Source: an uncultured Bdellovibrionales bacterium
GTDB taxonomy: Bacteria; Patescibacteriota; Minisyncoccia; Moranbacterales; UBA2206
Direction: 5' to 3'
DNA: 64,000 nt
NCBI GenBank assembly: GCA_964538685.1
Contig: CAZIFD010000003.1
Span: forward strand, 757 to 64,756
Below, piece by piece: positions 27,557 through 46,975 of this stretch. Under the pieces are notes generated by a model. It was not told the DNA's origin. It saw nothing but the letters and a program-made list of their open reading frames with translations, and did no database searches. A program made the translations under genes and the position numbers. How positions within the stretch are numbered: position 1 is the first letter of the stretch; every line of letters starts with the position of its first letter.

Positions 27557-28939
27557 TCATACCCTTTCACCCCCTTTCTCAATCATCTCTTCAACTTTTC
27601 TTTTGGCTTCTTCTAATAATTCTTTGGCTTTCCTGCGCGCTCCATGTGACTTCTGCACAAGATTGGCAATTTTTTCTTGAATTTCTTTTGGCAAAATTGG
27701 AACAACGACATTTTTAATTTGCTCCGGTTTCCAGTGAGCAATGACCGACCCGCCAGCATCTCGTTCAGCCTGCATTTGTCCGACCAAAGAATTTAGACAT
27801 AGTGCCAAATATTCTGCTTCGACATCATCATCTTTTAATTTTAACCGCAAAGTTCCGCCAGAAATAATACCTTGGATATCTTCTTTGAGAACGTAAGCAA
27901 TCCCTGGCGTCGCATCCTTGGTTAAAAGGATTTCGCCTTTTTTCGGCTCAAAATTATTTTTTAACTCATCATATAGCTTATCGCTCAAGTATTTTTGATC
28001 ACTTTCAACCACCCCAAATTTTGTCATACTACTAACTCGAATAAAAACTTTGCCTTCTTCCTGATATTCTTCCGCTCCAACCTCAATCCCTTTTCTCACA
28101 GAAACCAAATCGCTCAGTTTTTTGAAATTTTGAGATTTGATTTTCAAAAATAGTTTCTCATATTTTTTTTGAAAATATTCCGCATCTATCCGCTCTGCAC
28201 CCAAGACATCCGAAAAATTTACAATCGTTGATAAATTTTCCCCCGCATCAGAATTTTCTAAATTCAATTCTTTCAAGAGTAGCCTTTCGGCTCGTTGATA
28301 AAAGCTAATAGACTTTCTTTTTTCATTTACAATTTCAGAATATAAATCTTCAAAAATATCATACTTTGCACTTTCGCTTAATGGCACAATTAAACTCTCT
28401 ATATCTAAAACATTTAACTTTAATTGGATATTTCCACTAGCTTTTCTAAAAATTTGCGCCTGACCAAACTTGCTTAATAGAAAAAATAAAATGAAAGATT
28501 TTATTTTATTGTTTAAATTTTGCAATCTTATTCCAATATTATTTTCGCTTATATTAACTTCCCCGAAGCTATCATCAATAACAGACAGCCTGCCAATTGT
28601 AGCAATTTTTGATAGAACGATATCTCCAATATTCAAATGGGTGCTATAAATTCTTTTATTTTCTTCCTCTGAAATATAAACTAAATTATCTTTATCAATA
28701 AAAATGTCCGAAATATCACCAATGCGAATAAATGGGATGCCGTCGCTTTGATATGATTCGCTTTTCAGGGTAGAGCCAAATGGACCGCTAAAAACTTTTT
28801 CTGATATATTTTTTATTGTTTCGAATTTATTTTTTTTTATTTGATTTTCCACATCTAAATACTCTGGCTGATAATATTCAGCATCCAATCGCATCGCGCC
28901 TTCAAGTTGAGATTTTTGGATTATTGAAAAAGTTATCAT
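27557..28939 (-). CDS. hsdS: Restriction-modification specificity subunit (HsdS/BcgIB-like, two target-recognition domains)
   Basis: Duplicated TRD-plus-conserved-spacer architecture (RLDAEYYQPEY ... ERIDAEYFQKKY). Confidence 0.8.
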   Translation of the reverse strand: MITFSIIQKSQLEGAMRLDAEYYQPEYLDVENQIKKNKFETIKNISEKVFSGPFGSTLKSESYQSDGIPFIRIGDISDIFIDKDNLVYISEEENKRIYSTHLNIGDIVLSKIATIGRLSVIDDSFGEVNISENNIGIRLQNLNNKIKSFILFFLLSKFGQAQIFRKASGNIQLKLNVLDIESLIVPLSESAKYDIFEDLYSEIVNEKRKSISFYQRAERLLLKELNLENSDAGENLSTIVNFSDVLGAERIDAEYFQKKYEKLFLKIKSQNFKKLSDLVSVRKGIEVGAEEYQEEGKVFIRVSSMTKFGVVESDQKYLSDKLYDELKNNFEPKKGEILLTKDATPGIAYVLKEDIQGIISGGTLRLKLKDDDVEAEYLALCLNSLVGQMQAERDAGGSVIAHWKPEQIKNVVVPILPKEIQEKIANLVQKSHGARRKAKELLEEAKRKVEEMIEKGGERV

Positions 28940-28940
28940 T

Positions 28941-29270
28941 TTATTTGCTAAAAATCCACTTATATTTTTTAAGTTTTTCGAGATATGTTAACTCTGCCTT
29001 CTTTTTATCTATTTTATTATCATATTTTACCCTTAAGACATTCTCGATTTTTGTTCTGATGCCAGAAAAAGTTAGGCCTCTTCTAGCCATATCCGCCTTA
29101 ATATTTTCTTGATCTTTCAAATATTCATTTTTTAATTCTGCTATTTCTATTCTCTTTATTTCTATTTCCTTATCAATTTCAAGGCCCTTTAATTTTCTAT
29201 TTTCTAAATACAAATAGACAGTCATCAGTCCCAATATGCCATTCAGTATTTTGGATATTATATCCCACAT
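28941..29270 (-). CDS. Small protein with N-terminal TM and coiled-coil
   Basis: 109 aa with a 2-bp gap to hsdS. Confidence 0.45.
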   Translation of the reverse strand: MWDIISKILNGILGLMTVYLYLENRKLKGLEIDKEIEIKRIEIAELKNEYLKDQENIKADMARRGLTFSGIRTKIENVLRVKYDNKIDKKKAELTYLEKLKKYKWIFSK

Positions 29271-29276
29271 ATTCCT

Positions 29277-29591
29277 TTATAAAATTTTAACTATAATTTT
29301 AATCATAAAATAAGCTGAAACTATTAAACCAAACAAAAACATTCCCCATAGAAACTTTCCAAAATATGTTGTCTCATAGCTAAAAATTCCGCTAGGAGTG
29401 GGTAAAGAGTCTTTTCTTTTACCCAACAAAATTGAAAGTCCCATAATAGTCACCCCCATTGATAAACCGAACAAATTTTTATTTTCAAGAAAAGAAATGT
29501 CATACTGAACAGAAATAAACATCAAAAAAATTCCCAAATAAATAAAGATGTAAAATTTATTAATTTGTAATTTTCCAATGACTTCCTTCAT
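29277..29591 (-). CDS. Small 3-TM membrane protein
   Basis: 104-aa hydrophobic ORF in the same operon. Confidence 0.45.
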   Translation of the reverse strand: MKEVIGKLQINKFYIFIYLGIFLMFISVQYDISFLENKNLFGLSMGVTIMGLSILLGKRKDSLPTPSGIFSYETTYFGKFLWGMFLFGLIVSAYFMIKIIVKIL

Positions 29592-29644
29592 TTTTAAAAA
29601 TATTATCCTTGATTAAAGCGTATTATTGGTGAGTATAGCGACTA

Positions 29645-29756
29645 TTGACAATCTATCAGAAACTGCTATACTTACAATGTCTTTCGGTCAACATAGACTG
29701 AAAGGGTATTACATCCAAGAGCAGTCCTCCTTGCGGAGGGCTGTTTTATTTCTTTT
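29645..29756 (+). ncRNA. Candidate small RNA, antisense-oriented within the RM/NYN operon
   Basis: Near-consensus promoter (TTGACA 29645-29650, 16-nt spacer, TATACT 29667-29672). About 78 nt downstream lies a GC hairpin (CAGTCCTCC-TTGC-GGAGGGCTG) followed by TTTTATTTCTTTT. An 8-bp inverted repeat (AGTATAGC/GCTATACT) brackets the promoter. Confidence 0.3.
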
Positions 29757-30327
29757 CAGATCTGTATCTCAACTCCTTCCCCCAAACATCTTCTTCAATT
29801 TTCAATACATCAAAATATCCGTCGCCACCGGTTTTCAATTCCCGAGAAGCGTTGTTTTCTGAAGAAAAAATATATACCTTCTTGCCCCTATTTTTTAAAT
29901 AAGTTACCAATGCTAAAAAATCCGAATCTCCACTGAATAATATCGCAGTATCATATTTCTTTATATGGTGCATTGCATCTATTGTCATTTCAACATCCAT
30001 GTTTCCCTTTTCCTCGATAGCCTGTCCGTTATCCGTAACTATCGAAATGCGTTTCAGTTCCTTTTTTCTAACAACAAAACCCAAACCCTTCTTCAGGAAT
30101 GTAAAAAACTTATGCTTTCCATCCGTGCTATAATCACGAGTTCCTTCGGCCGGATAAGCAGTATAATAAAATACTTTTATTTCGGTTGACTCAAATTTGT
30201 TTTTAAGGTAGTTTCTTAATTTTTCTAAATCAAAAAGTCTCCCCTTCGTCTTTTGAGCTTGCCAAAGATTGGAAGCGTCAACAAAAACATAGACTGCATT
30301 TTTATTTTGTTTTTCTTGGTCATGCAT
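29746..30327 (-). CDS. NYN domain (LabA-like) nuclease
   Basis: Conserved acidic motifs VFVDASNL, DVEMTIDAM and SGDSDF. Sits 6 bp downstream of the methyltransferase gene. Confidence 0.75.
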   Translation of the reverse strand: MHDQEKQNKNAVYVFVDASNLWQAQKTKGRLFDLEKLRNYLKNKFESTEIKVFYYTAYPAEGTRDYSTDGKHKFFTFLKKGLGFVVRKKELKRISIVTDNGQAIEEKGNMDVEMTIDAMHHIKKYDTAILFSGDSDFLALVTYLKNRGKKVYIFSSENNASRELKTGGDGYFDVLKIEEDVWGKELRYRSEKK

Positions 30328-30332
30328 AATAT

Positions 30333-32264
30333 TTATTTTTTCATAAACCTCAAAAACTCTTCCGCGATTTCTTCCAGATCATGATCAATGATTTTCTTTC
30401 CATTCGGGTCAAACATCACATTTCCATCCTTGTCTTTCTTGTAGACATAATCCCCCGAAGTATCTTTTCCGCCTCTCTTTGAAACCGCCATAAAAATCGG
30501 ATAGTCATCTACTTTTGGACAAAGCGGTCCGGCCTTCGGATCATCATTCCATTTTTGCAAAAACAACACGCTTGTTTTTGTCCCGGTATGCGGCTTGAAA
30601 GTGTTTCCATGAAGTCCAACGACTGCCAAAAGCCTGGCTTTGTCCAGAAAGAAACGGCGCACATATTCCATTTGAGTATTATTCAGGATTCCTTGCGGCA
30701 AAACAATGGCCATTCTTCCGCCCGGTTTTAGAAAATTCAAGTCTCTTTCAATAAAAAGAACATCGCGAGAAACCTTGTTTTGATGCTTATTGGTTTTTTG
30801 AAAATCTTTGTCCCACTTAAAGCCCAGGTCATATCGATTGAGAAGTACCCCTTTGATTTCTCCGGCAAATGGCGGATTAGTGATGACTATATCAAAATCA
30901 AAGTCTGTCATTTTCTCCTGATTTCTTCTGTCTTCTTCCGGATCTTTTAATTTTCTAAGAAATGGCCGGAATTTAGCTTTGGCCTCTTCATTCCAAACTT
31001 CGCTGTCGAGTGAATTGGCATAAGTCACATTAGTTTTTCCGTCTCCAGCAATCAGCATCATGGCTTTTCCGATTTTAACACTGCGAGGATCAAAATCGAT
31101 TCCAAACAAACGTTTTTCGGCATAGTCTTTGCGTTCCACATCGTAGCGCTCGCCATATTTTTCTTTGGTAATTTCCCTTTTCCAAACATATTGCATGGCA
31201 TGAAGCAAAAAACCACAGCTTCCGGCTGCCGTGTCGATAATATAATCATTGGAAGTTGGAGCAAGCATCTTGACGGCCATATCAATAACATGGCGTGGTG
31301 TGAAATATTGGCCCTTTTCTCCTTTGGCATCCAGATTGATTAAATATTCAAAAGCATCGTCAATCACTTGAAGATTTGATCCAAACAGGCGGTATTTTTG
31401 AAGAAGAGAAACTGCCGGCACAACAACATTTTCTGGAATCTCCAATTCATCATTTGCCTTGAAAACTTCCCGCCACTCTCTTTTGGCATCTTCGAAAAGA
31501 CGTTCAATATTATTGAGATTTTCTTTGTTGGTAGCTCCAGCGATTACCCTAAACCTTCTATTTTCATTTCTTGGAGTCCGAATATCATCATAGAGCTTGG
31601 CATAGATAAGTTTGAAAATTTCATCAAAAGAATTAACGCCACTATTAGCCAGAACGACTTCCTGCAGATCATAGACCAGTTGCTGCAGATTTGGGATTTC
31701 ATCCAAGTCGTCATAAGTAAGCTTTTTTGTTCTAACATCCTCCACCGTTTCATTGAATTTGGGAATTTCCGGCAAATCTTCAAAAAGGTTAGGATCGGTT
31801 CGGAGAATATTATTTTGAATTTTTCCGTCCGTTAGAATCAGGATCGGCGCGCCAGTCGCATTAGCGTAGCTCTTGAGCTGCCCTAGTCCATCTTTTACAT
31901 CAGGTTTTTTGACCTCAACCACAAGGTATGGAGTTTTTCCGTCTTCCCGATAAATTACAATGTCCGCCCTTTTAGATCCAATCTCTCTTCCAAATTGAAC
32001 ATCTACCTCAACATCCAGTCGATCTAGGGGATATTTATAAAAATTAACCAGCTTATATATCATAAGTTGGCGAACAATTTCTTCCGGTTTAGCTTGGATA
32101 CTTTTTTTTCTTTTTAAACATTCAAGATAATATTTTCCTTCTTTTTCCGAAAAGCGAATAACTTCTTCAATAGTAATTCCTTCAAAAACCGAAAGCCCAA
32201 ATTGCATATCTGGATTATGAAATATCTTGCCCAAAATTTCGCTAGTCTTTTTTTGATCTACCAT
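30333..32264 (-). CDS. Fused PD-(D/E)xK endonuclease (HsdR_N-like) plus gamma-class N6-adenine DNA methyltransferase (BcgI-A-like type IIB / type I-like RM subunit)
   Basis: N-terminal D...EVK nuclease motif (RADIVIY...YLVVEVKKP). MTase motif I (IIDTAAGSCGFLL) and motif IV (NPPF). Confidence 0.8.
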   Translation of the reverse strand: MVDQKKTSEILGKIFHNPDMQFGLSVFEGITIEEVIRFSEKEGKYYLECLKRKKSIQAKPEEIVRQLMIYKLVNFYKYPLDRLDVEVDVQFGREIGSKRADIVIYREDGKTPYLVVEVKKPDVKDGLGQLKSYANATGAPILILTDGKIQNNILRTDPNLFEDLPEIPKFNETVEDVRTKKLTYDDLDEIPNLQQLVYDLQEVVLANSGVNSFDEIFKLIYAKLYDDIRTPRNENRRFRVIAGATNKENLNNIERLFEDAKREWREVFKANDELEIPENVVVPAVSLLQKYRLFGSNLQVIDDAFEYLINLDAKGEKGQYFTPRHVIDMAVKMLAPTSNDYIIDTAAGSCGFLLHAMQYVWKREITKEKYGERYDVERKDYAEKRLFGIDFDPRSVKIGKAMMLIAGDGKTNVTYANSLDSEVWNEEAKAKFRPFLRKLKDPEEDRRNQEKMTDFDFDIVITNPPFAGEIKGVLLNRYDLGFKWDKDFQKTNKHQNKVSRDVLFIERDLNFLKPGGRMAIVLPQGILNNTQMEYVRRFFLDKARLLAVVGLHGNTFKPHTGTKTSVLFLQKWNDDPKAGPLCPKVDDYPIFMAVSKRGGKDTSGDYVYKKDKDGNVMFDPNGKKIIDHDLEEIAEEFLRFMKK

Positions 32265-32268
32265 ATTA

Positions 32269-32907
32269 TTACTCTACTTTAGAAAGATTTAAAATTACTT
32301 TTCCCTGGAATTCAACTTCTTCCGGAATAATCACCTTGGCTTCATAGGCTGGATTTTCCGGTTTCAAATATCTCTTTCCGCCTTCAGCAATAAAGCGTTT
32401 AACAGTTGTTCCTTCATCCGTCCTGGCAATGACAATATCTCCGCTCTTGTATTCTTTTGATTCCTTAACTAATAATTTGTCCCCGTCATCGATGCCAGCG
32501 TTGATCATAGAGTCTCCGCTAACCTTTATGATAAAAACATCCTTTATCTGCTGAATATTTTCGTTATATAAAAATTTATCAGACAACGGCATCCAACTGG
32601 TAAAAGCATCGACATAAGATTCAATATATGGTCCGCCCGCGCTTGTTCCGGCAACCCTAACCAGAGGTTTTCTGTTTATTTCTTTATACCCTAAAGGCAA
32701 TATCTTAATTCCACGCGCTTGTCCATCCTCGCGCTTAATACATTCCTTCCTTTCTAATATCTCCAGAAAATTCAAAACCGATTGATTAGAAGACACACCC
32801 AATTCCTCTTTCAAGTCCGCCAAGGTTGGCGGAAATCCAGAAGATTGAATAGCGTCATATATTGACTCAAGGACTTTTTTCTGTTTTGAAGTAAGATATT
32901 TACTCAT
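32269..32907 (-). CDS. lexA: LexA repressor (wHTH plus S24 peptidase)
   Basis: N-terminal LexA DNA-binding domain. C-terminal Ser (GDSM) and Lys (KR) catalytic dyad. 4 bp upstream of the MTase gene. Confidence 0.8.
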   Translation of the reverse strand: MSKYLTSKQKKVLESIYDAIQSSGFPPTLADLKEELGVSSNQSVLNFLEILERKECIKREDGQARGIKILPLGYKEINRKPLVRVAGTSAGGPYIESYVDAFTSWMPLSDKFLYNENIQQIKDVFIIKVSGDSMINAGIDDGDKLLVKESKEYKSGDIVIARTDEGTTVKRFIAEGGKRYLKPENPAYEAKVIIPEEVEFQGKVILNLSKVE

Positions 32908-33103
32908 TAATCTAATTATATATGACTATAAAGTCTTGTCAAGTGTCTTTATTTAAGCCATTTTTAAACTATTTATTTTAGGATAAAAATCTTGACTTAT
33001 TTCGAGAACCTGCTAAAATTATACCTTAGAAGTACTTTTCTGGTTCCCCAGAAACCAGTTAATAAACCTGCCGGAGTCTGGGGCAAGGGCCTACAATAAA
33101 ATT

Positions 33104-46821: not shown

Positions 46822-46894
46822 GCCCTTATAGCTCAGTTGGTAGAGCAGTTGCCTCTTAAGCAAACGGTCCCAGGTTCAAGTCCTGGTGAGGGCA
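46822..46894 (+). tRNA. tRNA-Lys (anticodon CUU)
   Basis: Manual fold with anticodon loop CTCTTAA. Confidence 0.85.
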
Positions 46895-46906
46895 CGGAGA
46901 AAAACA

Positions 46907-46975
46907 TGGCGGGTATAGTTCAATGGTAGAACACTGGTTTGTGGTACCAGCTACCTGGGTCCAATCCATCCGACC
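46907..46975 (+). pseudogene. tRNA-His-like fragment (intact acceptor-5', D-arm and GUG anticodon arm; no matching T-arm or 3' acceptor)
   Basis: GGCGGGTATAGTTCAATGGTAGAAC-A-CTGGT-TTGTGGT-ACCAG, then non-complementary sequence. Confidence 0.3.

Follow-up and report, generated by a model that had tools for sequence, protein, structure and literature searches.

The gap between minus-strand ORFs at positions 29592-29745 of the 64-kb window (the whole stretch of DNA that was analysed) harbors a predicted plus-strand gene for a small RNA of ~78 nt (29679-29756), which comparison with relatives shows to be a member of an uncatalogued family of structured small RNAs of ~75-85 nt spread across CPR/Patescibacteria. 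The predicted members of this family share a common layout, namely their own sigma-70 promoter, a 5' hairpin, a near-invariant segment of 16-18 nt (GGGUAUUACAUCCAAGGG) and an intrinsic terminator. The gene is convergent to a gene for a NYN-domain protein, and the RNA probably represents a new kind of small RNA associated with a nuclease, not a peculiarity of a single defense operon. The original prediction of a non-coding RNA gene of this size and strand is thus borne out, as far as sequence analysis can tell, by a promoter, a terminator, covariation and a covariance-model match.

The promoter consists of a -35 hexamer TTGACA (29645-29650, plus strand), a 16-nt spacer and an extended -10 element TGcTATACT (29664-29672, plus strand), the two hexamers and the spacer being those proposed originally; with the TG it scores 11/12 and ranks second among the promoter matches in the 12 kb scanned. 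From the promoter geometry, transcription would start at G29679. These elements are retained in most of the relatives: a sigma-70 promoter match of at least 9/12 is found at a fixed distance from the 5' end of the RNA in 93 of the 101 unique loci, a -35 element of the TTGAC[A/T] type occupies the equivalent position in 77, TATACT is the most frequent -10 hexamer (52/101), the TG is present in 48, and exactly 6 nt separate the end of the -10 element from a conserved 5' (G/A)UCU in 83. The RNA locus is conserved and probably highly expressed.

The 8-bp inverted repeat that was noted around the promoter is present, with the left arm AGTATAGC at 29632-29639 and the right arm GCTATACT at 29665-29672, within the extended -10 element. 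The left arm is kept, as GAGTATRGC, only in the clade to which the window belongs; most other lineages lack it and often carry a DnaA box at the same place (a DnaA box is found at the RNA promoter in 40 of the 101 loci). The -35 element doubles on the opposite strand (TTGTCA, 29651-29646) as the -35 element of a candidate divergent promoter, which continues with an 18-nt spacer and the -10 hexamer AATAAT (29622-29627, minus strand) and matches the consensus at 10/12 positions. The segment GCGTATTATT of this candidate promoter is conserved within the clade of the window, and the promoter, which is clade-specific, would drive a 104-aa ORF and the genes that follow it.

The predicted transcript (29679-29758) folds with a minimum free energy of -33.4 kcal/mol (z = -5.9), and none of 200 shuffled sequences folds as well. 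Its 5' hairpin (29681-29704) has a 9-bp stem formed by CUUUCGGUC and GACUGAAAG and a loop AACAUA, the loop being variable across the family. It is followed by the single-stranded segment GGGUAUUACAUCCAAG (29704-29719), the columns of which are invariant or at least 90% conserved in both alignments that were used (A1 and A2). The GC-rich terminator hairpin (29718-29747), also part of the original prediction, comprises 13 pairs and outranks every other terminator-like site in the 12 kb scanned; its CCUCC-loop-GGAGG top is conserved, with the family-wide form CCCUCC-tetraloop-GGAGGG, and the base of its stem covaries. The T-run TTTTATTTCTTTT (29744-29756) covers the stop codon and the last codons of the NYN gene, and across the 101 loci the 12 nt located 3' of the terminator stem contain 8 T on average.

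Covariation was assessed in a MAFFT alignment of 89 sequences against 500 shuffles and slid controls. Paired cells amount to 97.1%, compared with 87.9% in the shuffles and 42-65% in the slid controls, and there are 185 double-change cells as opposed to 54 in the shuffles. None of the 500 shuffles matches the paired cells, the double-change cells, the pair types or the covariation score, whereas the number of pairs changed on both sides (11 of 22) is matched by 5/500. In the 5' hairpin, 6 of the 10 pairs are changed on both sides and 94.7% of the cells are paired; the corresponding values for the terminator helix are compensatory changes in 5 of 12 pairs and 99.1%. The abundant G-U pairs fit the plus strand only, with columns 56/83 turning into C-A in 89 of the 89 sequences on the other strand, so that a structure formed on the NYN-sense strand is excluded. 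The combination of an invariant single-stranded segment with covarying helices indicates that selection acts on the RNA itself. The covariation also speaks for RNA, and a DNA-level function, such as a dif site, is rejected.

The original prediction had discounted a plus-strand protein gene in this region, and we arrive at the same conclusion. The sole plus-strand ORF at the RNA (78 aa, TTG start, 29626-29862) has no Pfam match; the AUG is not conserved in relatives, loop indels break the frame, and in three of the relatives the frame stops after 4-8 codons. A small protein or a leaderless mRNA can therefore be ruled out. No plus-strand gene was found downstream of the RNA.

A covariance model (R1) built from the relatives matches the window at 29673-29756 on the plus strand (86.4 bits, E = 7e-19). 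This is the only significant match in the 64 kb, so the RNA is present in a single copy and a repeat family is ruled out. A pattern limited to the 18-nt linker recovered ~100 further copies in metagenomes. The family appears to have escaped description: Rfam 15 yielded no match at E <= 10 in a 6.5-kb scan, only tRNAs at the gathering threshold in the whole window, and at best Phe_leader in a 111-nt scan (17 bits, with the gathering score at 55), and a full-text literature search found no published account of the RNA. On inspection, it is not an SRP RNA, given that both hairpins are fully paired and lack the internal loops of the SRP motif, and at 78 nt it is too small for a 6S RNA. An additional weak match in one of the loci (L106) proved to be an ordinary bidirectional terminator. 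Viral contigs yielded no real copy, the two matches there being chance hits that lack the hairpins, so that a phage-borne element is rejected as well.

The convergent gene (29746-30327, minus strand) encodes a 193-aa protein with a NYN domain of the LabA/DUF88 type (PF01936, E = 3e-26). Its stop codon (TAA) lies at 29746-29748, and the T-run of the RNA overlaps the last four NYN codons, in agreement with the original placement of the element in the gap with its end inside the 3' end of the NYN gene; the antisense overlap with coding sequence is only ~11 nt. The best 120 homologs listed are 71-100% identical to this protein, and all organism-named entries among them come from CPR phyla or unclassified bacteria. 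The acidic residues D17, D111, E113, D117, D134 and D136 are invariant, and the identity between NYN proteins is 61-82% where the LexA proteins of the same loci are 32-51% identical, which suggests that NYN is probably an active nuclease under strong constraint. The structure model of the protein is of moderate quality (pLDDT 68.5), and its sole clear structural relative is 2qip, whose function is not known. A role as a protein-only RNase P is rejected given the presence of an RNase P RNA in two CPR loci. No shared regulatory motif was seen by eye upstream of the NYN genes.

The association between the two genes is tight from either side. The RNA is present at the 3' end of the NYN gene in all 11 genome loci found via the NYN protein as well as in each of four additional NYN loci (E = 7e-18 to 1.5e-21). 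Altogether, it is convergent to the NYN 3' end in 15/15 NYN-anchored loci, a sample biased toward close relatives of the protein encoded in the window, from at least ten CPR lineages (Morani-, Doudna-, Sacchari-, Lloyd-, Zambryskii-, Portnoy-, Pacei-, Kaiser-, Wolfe- and Falkowbacteria), and none of these 15 loci has a NYN gene of this subfamily without the RNA. Conversely, among 114 RNA loci (101 identified by the linker pattern alone, 11 NYN-anchored, one duplicate and the window), a gene of the NYN cluster adjoins the RNA in 99 and in three more by tblastn, that is, in ~91% of the assessable loci. In 88 loci, the linker is followed at a distance of 29-57 nt by the NYN 3' end. The pattern of identities is compatible with vertical descent.

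No conserved neighbor gene other than NYN was detected among the RNA loci. In the window, a methyltransferase gene (HSDR_N + N6_Mtase, 30333-32264, minus strand) is located directly upstream of NYN, and the gene for a HsdS-type specificity subunit (27557-28939, minus strand) is found on the far side of the RNA; both are lineage-specific context. The methyltransferase-NYN arrangement recurs in eight other loci, and NYN lies inside a restriction-modification (RM) locus in the window and in 5 of the 14 other NYN-anchored loci. Among RNA-anchored loci, a methyltransferase is found directly upstream of NYN in 3 of 47 and HsdS nearby in 2 of 38, and in most loci the NYN-RNA pair is free of any RM genes. 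The original assignment of the element to a defense operon does not hold for a pair that is found CPR-wide. The 104-aa ORF that diverges from the RNA (29277-29591, minus strand) is predicted to encode a membrane protein, has no match in Pfam, NCBIfam or PADLOC and is outside the conserved module: its position is taken by unrelated ORFs in four of the loci compared and by none in a fifth, and the small ORFs on the promoter side fall into a separate protein cluster for every RM-wrapped locus compared. The methyltransferase and NYN genes follow lexA (32269-32907, minus strand; TIGR00498, 140 bits against a cut-off of 111), the first gene of a lexA-methyltransferase-NYN array. A perfect consensus promoter precedes lexA, and 7 nt separate its -10 element from the ATG. 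Such lexA-headed arrays are found in the window and in ~14 loci, and LexA adjacency is limited to a minority of the loci.

In ~10 loci, an intact RNA is located beside a decayed or missing NYN gene, with 3' remnants of NYN still recognizable in four of them. Most of these orphan RNAs (nine loci) retain covariance-model scores of 86-99 bits. In one locus (L070), a divergent NYN paralog occupies the convergent slot; in another (L043), a NYN paralog is encoded beyond a NYN remnant; and in a third (L062), a PemK/MazF-like RNase is encoded between lexA and the RNA.

We favor, although with somewhat less than even confidence, the interpretation that the RNA binds the NYN nuclease as its dedicated partner or restraint, acting as a decoy, an inhibitor or a specificity factor. 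The invariance of the single-stranded segment and the hairpin top, combined with covarying stem bases, favors recognition by a protein over plain antisense pairing. The occurrence of orphan RNAs but not of orphan NYN genes (0 of 15) and the replacement of NYN in its slot, as seen in L070, are also in line with this interpretation. Under the proposed mechanism, the hairpins would lock both ends of the RNA, which should make it stable, and NYN would bind the exposed invariant segment and possibly also the conserved hairpin top; the bound RNA would then hold the nuclease in check as a decoy or inhibitor, or else would serve as a specificity factor. Such a relationship would be antitoxin-like without amounting to a classical toxin-antitoxin system. 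The convergent overlap would additionally render the RNA fully complementary to NYN read-through transcripts, allowing for a secondary cis-antisense coupling, and the DnaA box in the promoter might tie RNA synthesis to DnaA in many lineages, with NYN being part of a lexA-headed gene array in some, including that of the window. The broader proposition, a CPR-wide RNA-NYN ribonucleoprotein or nuclease-inhibitor pair of an undescribed kind, in which a near-universal and strongly constrained nuclease would be governed by, or depend on, its own 78-nt RNA, with the RNA wired to DnaA and the nuclease to LexA in some lineages, is more speculative and appears possible at best. The original suggestion of a regulatory or antitoxin-like RNA survives in part: the NYN gene is the conserved genomic partner and an antitoxin-like role is possible, but the suggested control of membrane-protein genes is not supported, the small ORFs being lineage-specific.

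The main alternative to a partnership with NYN is an independent, trans-acting housekeeping RNA, the invariant segment of which would recognize, by base-pairing or binding, a conserved target that has nothing to do with NYN, with the adjacency representing frozen ancestral synteny. We consider this a serious contender, albeit on balance a doubtful one. The succession of a 5' hairpin, a single-stranded, nearly invariant seed and a terminator is the typical architecture of base-pairing small RNAs, and the RNA has a promoter of its own, often equipped with a DnaA box. It also remains intact at loci with a decayed or absent NYN gene, and the intact orphans would fit a NYN-independent function equally well. 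Furthermore, the overlap between the T-run and the NYN stop leaves no neutral breakpoint and could alone preserve the adjacency without functional coupling. Against this, synteny of ~91% across phyla, with all other neighbors changed, is unusual for unrelated genes, and no NYN of the subfamily without the RNA was encountered (0 of 15 NYN-anchored loci). In addition, searches for a target of the RNA revealed no complementary site. In the 64-kb window, the best non-self duplex reaches -19.6 kcal/mol and the complement of the 18-mer has no match at up to 3 mismatches; no target was found in ~0.8 Mb of CPR flanks; and the translation-initiation regions of NYN genes do not pair with it better than those of other genes (mean -8.7 vs -9.3 kcal/mol, p = 0.93). 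With the E. coli 16S, 23S and 5S rRNAs as a proxy, the best duplex (-24.0 kcal/mol) is not clearly above that of the best shuffled linker (-22.1 kcal/mol) and falls in a variable helix.

A purely cis-antisense regulator in the manner of SymR/SymE or of the type I antitoxins with 3' overlap, which would lower NYN by convergent transcription and by pairing with its read-through transcripts and have no role as a free molecule, seems improbable. The convergent 3' overlap is conserved, NYN belongs to a lexA-headed array in the window and several lineages, and the hairpin on the NYN strand is not followed by a U-run, so that read-through from NYN across the RNA gene is plausible. However, an antisense RNA is complementary to its target by construction and needs neither an invariant segment nor covarying helices, the shared coding sequence is very short, the partner is a conserved soluble nuclease and not a small toxic peptide, and orphan RNAs keep the full structure. 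The short overlap and the selection on the RNA itself also count against the original designation of the RNA as antisense.

A riboswitch-like conditional terminator, in which a signal sensed by the hairpin and linker would gate antisense transcription into NYN, is very unlikely. A strong promoter that points into the NYN 3' end and has no sense gene after it, and the aptamer-like conservation of unpaired sequence might be taken to hint at such a device. However, the minimum-free-energy structure coincides with the centroid structure, with no competing antiterminator or alternative fold predicted; the GC-rich terminator stem of 12-13 bp is 99% paired across the family; the variable loop of the first hairpin precludes a pseudoknot with the invariant tail; no Rfam riboswitch matches; and there is no plus-strand gene to be regulated. 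We give even less credence to a local regulator of the RM operon or of the small membrane-protein genes. The RNA gene does lie between NYN and the genes for the 104-aa ORF, a 109-aa ORF and HsdS in one co-directional array, its -35 element is shared back-to-back with the candidate promoter of those genes in the clade of the window, and the order methyltransferase-NYN-RNA-...-HsdS recurs in several lineages, but RM genes are rare among RNA-anchored loci, the small ORFs differ in every lineage, and the RNA does not overlap the transcripts of those genes. Finally, the notion that a promoter-like sequence happens to adjoin a bidirectional terminator serving only to end the NYN gene is already refuted by the comparison of more than 100 loci, which represent at least ten CPR lineages and in which promoter, helices and linker are conserved with covariation, common as promoter-like hexamer pairs are in the AT-rich DNA of the window (48 vs 36 expected in 12 kb).

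The pairing of this RNA with NYN resembles several known systems without matching any of them. In the type I toxin-antitoxin systems RatA/txpA and SR4/bsrG of B. subtilis, the antitoxins are cis-antisense RNAs that overlap the 3' end of the toxin gene. The present RNA is similar in having its own promoter and intrinsic terminator, in its convergent orientation and 3' overlap relative to a protein gene, and in that orphan RNAs occur whereas orphan protein genes were not seen (15 NYN-anchored loci). Type I toxins, however, are small (<~60 aa) hydrophobic peptides, in contrast to a 193-aa soluble NYN protein that is 61-82% identical across phyla, and type I systems are patchy, multicopy and mobile, whereas this RNA is single-copy and appears to be vertically inherited; the ~11-nt coding overlap, the invariant single-stranded segment and the covarying helices across many CPR lineages also set it apart. 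As a separate observation, NYN is far more conserved than typical toxins, which counts against the favored interpretation.

In the SymR/SymE system of E. coli, an SOS-induced RNase-like toxin is held down by a cis-encoded antisense RNA, and SymR overlaps the 5' end and the ribosome-binding site of symE. The combination of a LexA-linked nuclease-type protein with a separately transcribed small RNA on the opposite strand is shared, but here it is the 3' end that is overlapped, the RNA is not predicted to pair with the NYN initiation region, and LexA adjacency is not general. In type III systems, the toxin processes ToxI, an array of tandem repeats that precedes the toxin gene in the same orientation. 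ToxIN and the proposed pair have in common the idea that a dedicated small RNA neutralizes an endoribonuclease by binding to it directly, whereas the RNA described here is single and non-repeated, convergent, located downstream of NYN and equipped with its own promoter. Like the PrrC-type RNases of type I RM loci, NYN is flanked in the window and in some relatives by the methylase and specificity genes of an RM-type system, but it is unrelated to PrrC and most NYN-RNA pairs lack RM genes. In the Rsr (Ro60)/Y RNA modules of bacteria, a structured non-coding RNA gene is likewise kept beside a gene for an RNA-metabolism protein over long evolutionary distances; this long-kept adjacency suggests a ribonucleoprotein. 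Unlike Rsr, NYN has no TROVE/Ro domain, the genes are convergent, and the RNA shows no Y RNA structure, sequence or Rfam match.

CPR/Patescibacteria represent a large share of bacterial diversity, and their RNA biology is almost unexplored. The family described here is widespread in this group, better conserved than its protein neighbors and a textbook case of covariation, and yet neither Rfam 15 nor the literature searched contains it; the RNA is genetically locked to NYN, which is itself more constrained than LexA of the same loci. The R1 model would enable annotators to avoid spurious ORF calls in the gap. The genomes of CPR bacteria are now becoming genetically tractable, and Saccharibacteria are naturally competent (PMC10187176). 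If the RNA and NYN act together, they would constitute a new nuclease-RNA partnership and provide a function for an uncharacterized branch of the LabA/DUF88-type NYN proteins. With the RNA wired to DnaA and the nuclease to LexA, such a pair would form a small RNA-protein circuit through which the status of replication or DNA damage would bear on RNA cleavage, and this in the most reduced of known bacteria.

The gap that separates the minus-strand ORFs at 29592-29745 holds the gene for a predicted structured RNA of the plus strand (29679-29756), and all elements of the original prediction (promoter, inverted repeat, terminator hairpin, T-run and gap) are confirmed in the sequence. The promoter consists of a -35 TTGACA (29645-29650), a 16-nt spacer and an extended -10, TGcTATACT (29664-29672); it scores 11/12 and ranks second among the promoter matches in the 12 kb scanned. 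AGTATAGC (29632-29639) and GCTATACT (29665-29672) form the 8-bp inverted repeat. The GC-rich terminator hairpin of 13 pairs (29718-29747, plus strand), the top terminator-like site of the region, is followed by the T-run TTTTATTTCTTTT (29744-29756), which covers the stop codon and the last codons of the convergent NYN gene because that ORF occupies 29746-30327 on the minus strand. The predicted fold of the transcript has a 5' hairpin (29681-29704) separated by unpaired bases from the terminator hairpin, and its energy of -33.4 kcal/mol (z = -5.9) was equaled by none of 200 shuffled sequences. A 78-aa plus-strand ORF with a TTG start has no Pfam match. When the window was scanned with R1, the covariance model derived from the RNA alignment, a single significant copy was detected, at 29673-29756 (86.4 bits).

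Both helices are supported by a MAFFT alignment of 89 distinct RNA sequences. Standard pairs are formed by 97.1% of the cells, compared to 87.9% in column shuffles and 42-65% when the partners are slid by 1-3 columns. Changes on both sides are observed in 11 of the 22 pairs (8.7 in shuffles, with 11 reached by 5 of 500) and in 185 cells (54 in shuffles, with the observed value reached by none of 500). The helices contain many G-U pairs that would read C-A on the opposite strand, and hence the structured molecule is the plus-strand RNA. Hairpin 1 has a loop of variable length and sequence. Almost no variation is seen in the linker between the two hairpins, GGGUAUUACAUCCAAGGG, or at the top of the terminator stem, CCCUCC-tetraloop-GGAGGG, in contrast to the base of this stem, which covaries. 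Neither a reading frame nor an AUG is conserved across the RNA copies compared.

When genomes were scanned with the NYN protein, 11 loci from seven named lineages of CPR/Patescibacteria were recovered, and in all 11 the same RNA is found at the NYN 3' end on the opposite strand, each time with its own TTGAC-N16-18-TATACT promoter and terminator. Four further NYN homologues that were checked individually (from Kaiser-, Wolfe- and Falkowbacteria and one metagenome contig) are likewise accompanied by the RNA (4/4; covariance-model E = 7e-18 to 1.5e-21), so that it is present in 15 of 15 NYN-anchored loci, among which no NYN of this subfamily was found without it. In a search of metagenomes that was independent of NYN, with the 18-nt linker GGGTWYTACATCCAAGGG as the sole query, at least 120 stretches matched; 20 of these are chance matches within coding sequence, without hairpins, and the remaining matches listed, about 100, are full RNA copies. 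A gene of the NYN cluster ends 29-57 nt past the linker in 99 of 114 RNA loci; in three more, NYN was identified by tblastn, at a contig end or frameshifted, about 10 lack an intact adjacent NYN, and two were left out of this assessment. No neighbor besides NYN is conserved among the RNA loci, the next most common clusters being LexA (14 loci), methylase (12) and HsdS (10). The association of the RNA with NYN is reciprocal, near-universal and convergent in many CPR lineages, with all other synteny lost.

The minus-strand array of the window comprises, in order, lexA (TIGR00498 match above the cut-off), an HSDR_N + N6_Mtase methylase, the 193-aa NYN (PF01936), the RNA gap, two small ORFs without a family match and an HsdS-type specificity subunit. 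The lexA promoter (32908-32945, minus strand) is a perfect consensus (TTGACA, 16 nt, TATAAT), and the lexA ATG lies just 7 nt past the -10; the mRNA with which the lexA-MTase-NYN array begins is therefore probably leaderless. In the protein collection, 2204 relatives of NYN are recorded; the best 120 of these are 71-100% identical, and their named sources are all CPR/Patescibacteria lineages (Moran-, Doudna-, Kaiser-, Wolfe- and Falkowbacteria and the Parcubacteria group) or unclassified bacteria. These identities and sources place the window in a CPR bacterium, and NYN behaves like a strongly constrained core gene, unlike a typical defense gene. The acidic catalytic residues are all retained among the NYN homologues compared, and by identity NYN is under tighter constraint than LexA of the same loci.

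The order lexA-MTase-NYN-RNA-variable ORFs-HsdS, in which the NYN-RNA pair splits the methylase from the specificity gene, recurs among the closer relatives of the window; it is seen in the window (27557-32907) and in the related loci L001, L002, L009, L022, L054, L079, L127, L137 and L138, and occurs in Morani-, Doudna-, Portnoy-, Wolfe- and Falkowbacteria. Each lineage has different small ORFs on the promoter side of the RNA. Identities in the lexA-MTase-NYN-RNA loci (47-74% for LexA, 50-86% for the MTase and 62-82% for NYN) suggest that the arrangement with HsdS is old and vertically kept.

Among 101 unique loci, the promoter match is at least 9/12 in 93, the -10 ends exactly 6 nt ahead of the conserved 5' (G/A)UCU in 83, TG precedes the -10 in 48, and the mean T content past the terminator stem is 8 of 12 bases, a combination that marks an autonomous transcription unit. 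In 40 of these loci, a DnaA box, TTATCCACA, in either orientation and with no more than one mismatch, is located directly upstream of the -35; its frequency in the remaining sequence of these loci predicts about three, which suggests that DnaA controls the RNA in many CPR lineages. Loci with the box include L007, L012, L014, L020, L024, L038, L063, L072, L076, L080, L086, L101, L104, L105, L117, L121 and L126, among others. The clade of the window has no DnaA box at this promoter and instead contains conserved GAGTATRGC and GCGTATTATT. The former is the left arm of the inverted repeat and, together with GCGTATTATT and TTGTCA, the reverse reading of the -35, forms a candidate divergent promoter for minus-strand genes; the repeat is thus explained in part as two facing -10-like elements, and it is clade-specific. 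Upstream of the sRNA promoter, some 70 nt are conserved in this clade (TTTTGAAATATTT..CATAAATAAGCGTATTATT..GAGTATGGC; 29592-29645 in the window, with equivalents in L001, L022, L044, L054, L116 and L128), which is compatible with a divergent promoter and the 5' leader of the downstream minus-strand genes. These genes vary between loci.

In about 10 loci, an intact RNA is found beside a decayed or replaced NYN. Of the NYN gene, 76 codons are left in L024, 35 in L047 and 16 in L034, and L075 carries an internally deleted remnant. In these four loci, as well as L038 and L094, NYN has been reduced to a short 3' remnant, or other genes have fused with it or taken its place, and the promoter, structure and terminator of the sRNA are all retained in full. 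The promoter of L025 is nearly identical to those of the orphans L016/L047, and that of L128 to that of the orphan L094; because L025 and L128 retain NYN, the losses in L016/L047 and L094, at least, look recent. The convergent slot is taken by a divergent NYN paralogue in L070, and in L043 a paralogue is found beyond a remnant of the canonical NYN. In L062, a gene for a PemK/MazF-like endoribonuclease (offsets +142..+1087 from the RNA) lies between lexA and the RNA, the slot usual for NYN; no other full-length RNA copy scores as low with the model as that of this locus (72.8 bits). A related PemK-like gene is present on the other side of the RNA in L016. The Wolfebacteria contig L137 (1-867) encodes, upstream of the methylase-NYN-RNA unit, another NYN paralogue that is longer (236 aa) and is followed by a Phd/YefM-ParE pair; no RNA copy was detected beside it in the 141 nt of this paralogue that the locus covers. 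RM-type genes surround the orphan copies of L038, L040 and L094: a helicase/restriction-like 695-aa ORF abuts the RNA terminator in L040, and methyltransferase-like ORFs are located nearby in L094 and on the RNA promoter side in L038. The RNA 3' end thus may be a favored site for insertion of, or replacement by, defense genes.

No family in Rfam 15 resembles the RNA, and full-text searches of the literature, one of them by the sequence itself, found no description of it. A phage-borne element was ruled out by checking the viral-contig matches. A base-pairing target was detected neither in the 64-kb window nor in the CPR flanks searched (about 0.8 Mb), the RNA shows no preference for pairing with NYN initiation regions, and no site in rRNA, with E. 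coli rRNA as a proxy, is clearly above shuffled controls. Because at least one defining feature of each of the closest analogues, namely 3'-overlapping type I antitoxin RNAs, SymR/SymE, the Rsr/Y RNA modules and ToxIN, is missing, we class this as a new RNA family and a new form of the theme of a nuclease with a dedicated small RNA. RNase P RNA is encoded about 3-8 kb from the sRNA in two of the 11 long loci scanned (L028, 11572-12059; L065, 10878-11180), which may be coincidence or loose linkage; the CPR bacteria of these loci possess a normal RNase P RNA. Right after tRNA-Lys (46822-46895), the window has a partial tRNA-like match of 51 nt (46909-46959, plus strand; Rfam tRNA, 30.7 bits) without an ARAGORN call, possibly a fragment of a tRNA or a scar left by integration.

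With regard to function, we tentatively favor, at slightly below an even chance, the RNA being a dedicated partner of NYN: a stable, end-protected molecule that the nuclease would bind through the exposed invariant segment and that would serve as a decoy, inhibitor or specificity factor, with antisense complementarity to NYN read-through transcripts as a secondary coupling. The step from conserved neighbor to binding is one that we infer. The observations that bear on function are genetic: the adjacency of RNA and NYN, the intact RNAs beside lost NYN genes with no converse case found, the displacements in the NYN slot, the selection on the RNA and the constraint on the nuclease. The invariance of the unpaired segment and the hairpin top argues for recognition of the RNA itself, given that a cis-antisense RNA would need neither. 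The main rival, possible albeit rather unlikely, holds that the RNA is a housekeeping sRNA acting independently in trans and that the 3' overlap froze its place next to NYN; the intact orphan copies, with covariance-model scores of 86-99 bits, are consistent with this. Less likely are pure cis-antisense control, improbable given that the invariant elements would be superfluous; a conditional terminator, for which we see little prospect; and a role specific to RM operons. The latter, in line with the location originally described as a defense operon, is highly doubtful because a methylase is directly upstream of NYN in just 3 of 47 RNA-anchored loci and HsdS is nearby in 2 of 38. Chance is hardly credible. 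The mechanism is put forward as a proposal, and for RNA and CPR biologists the family is clearly of interest.
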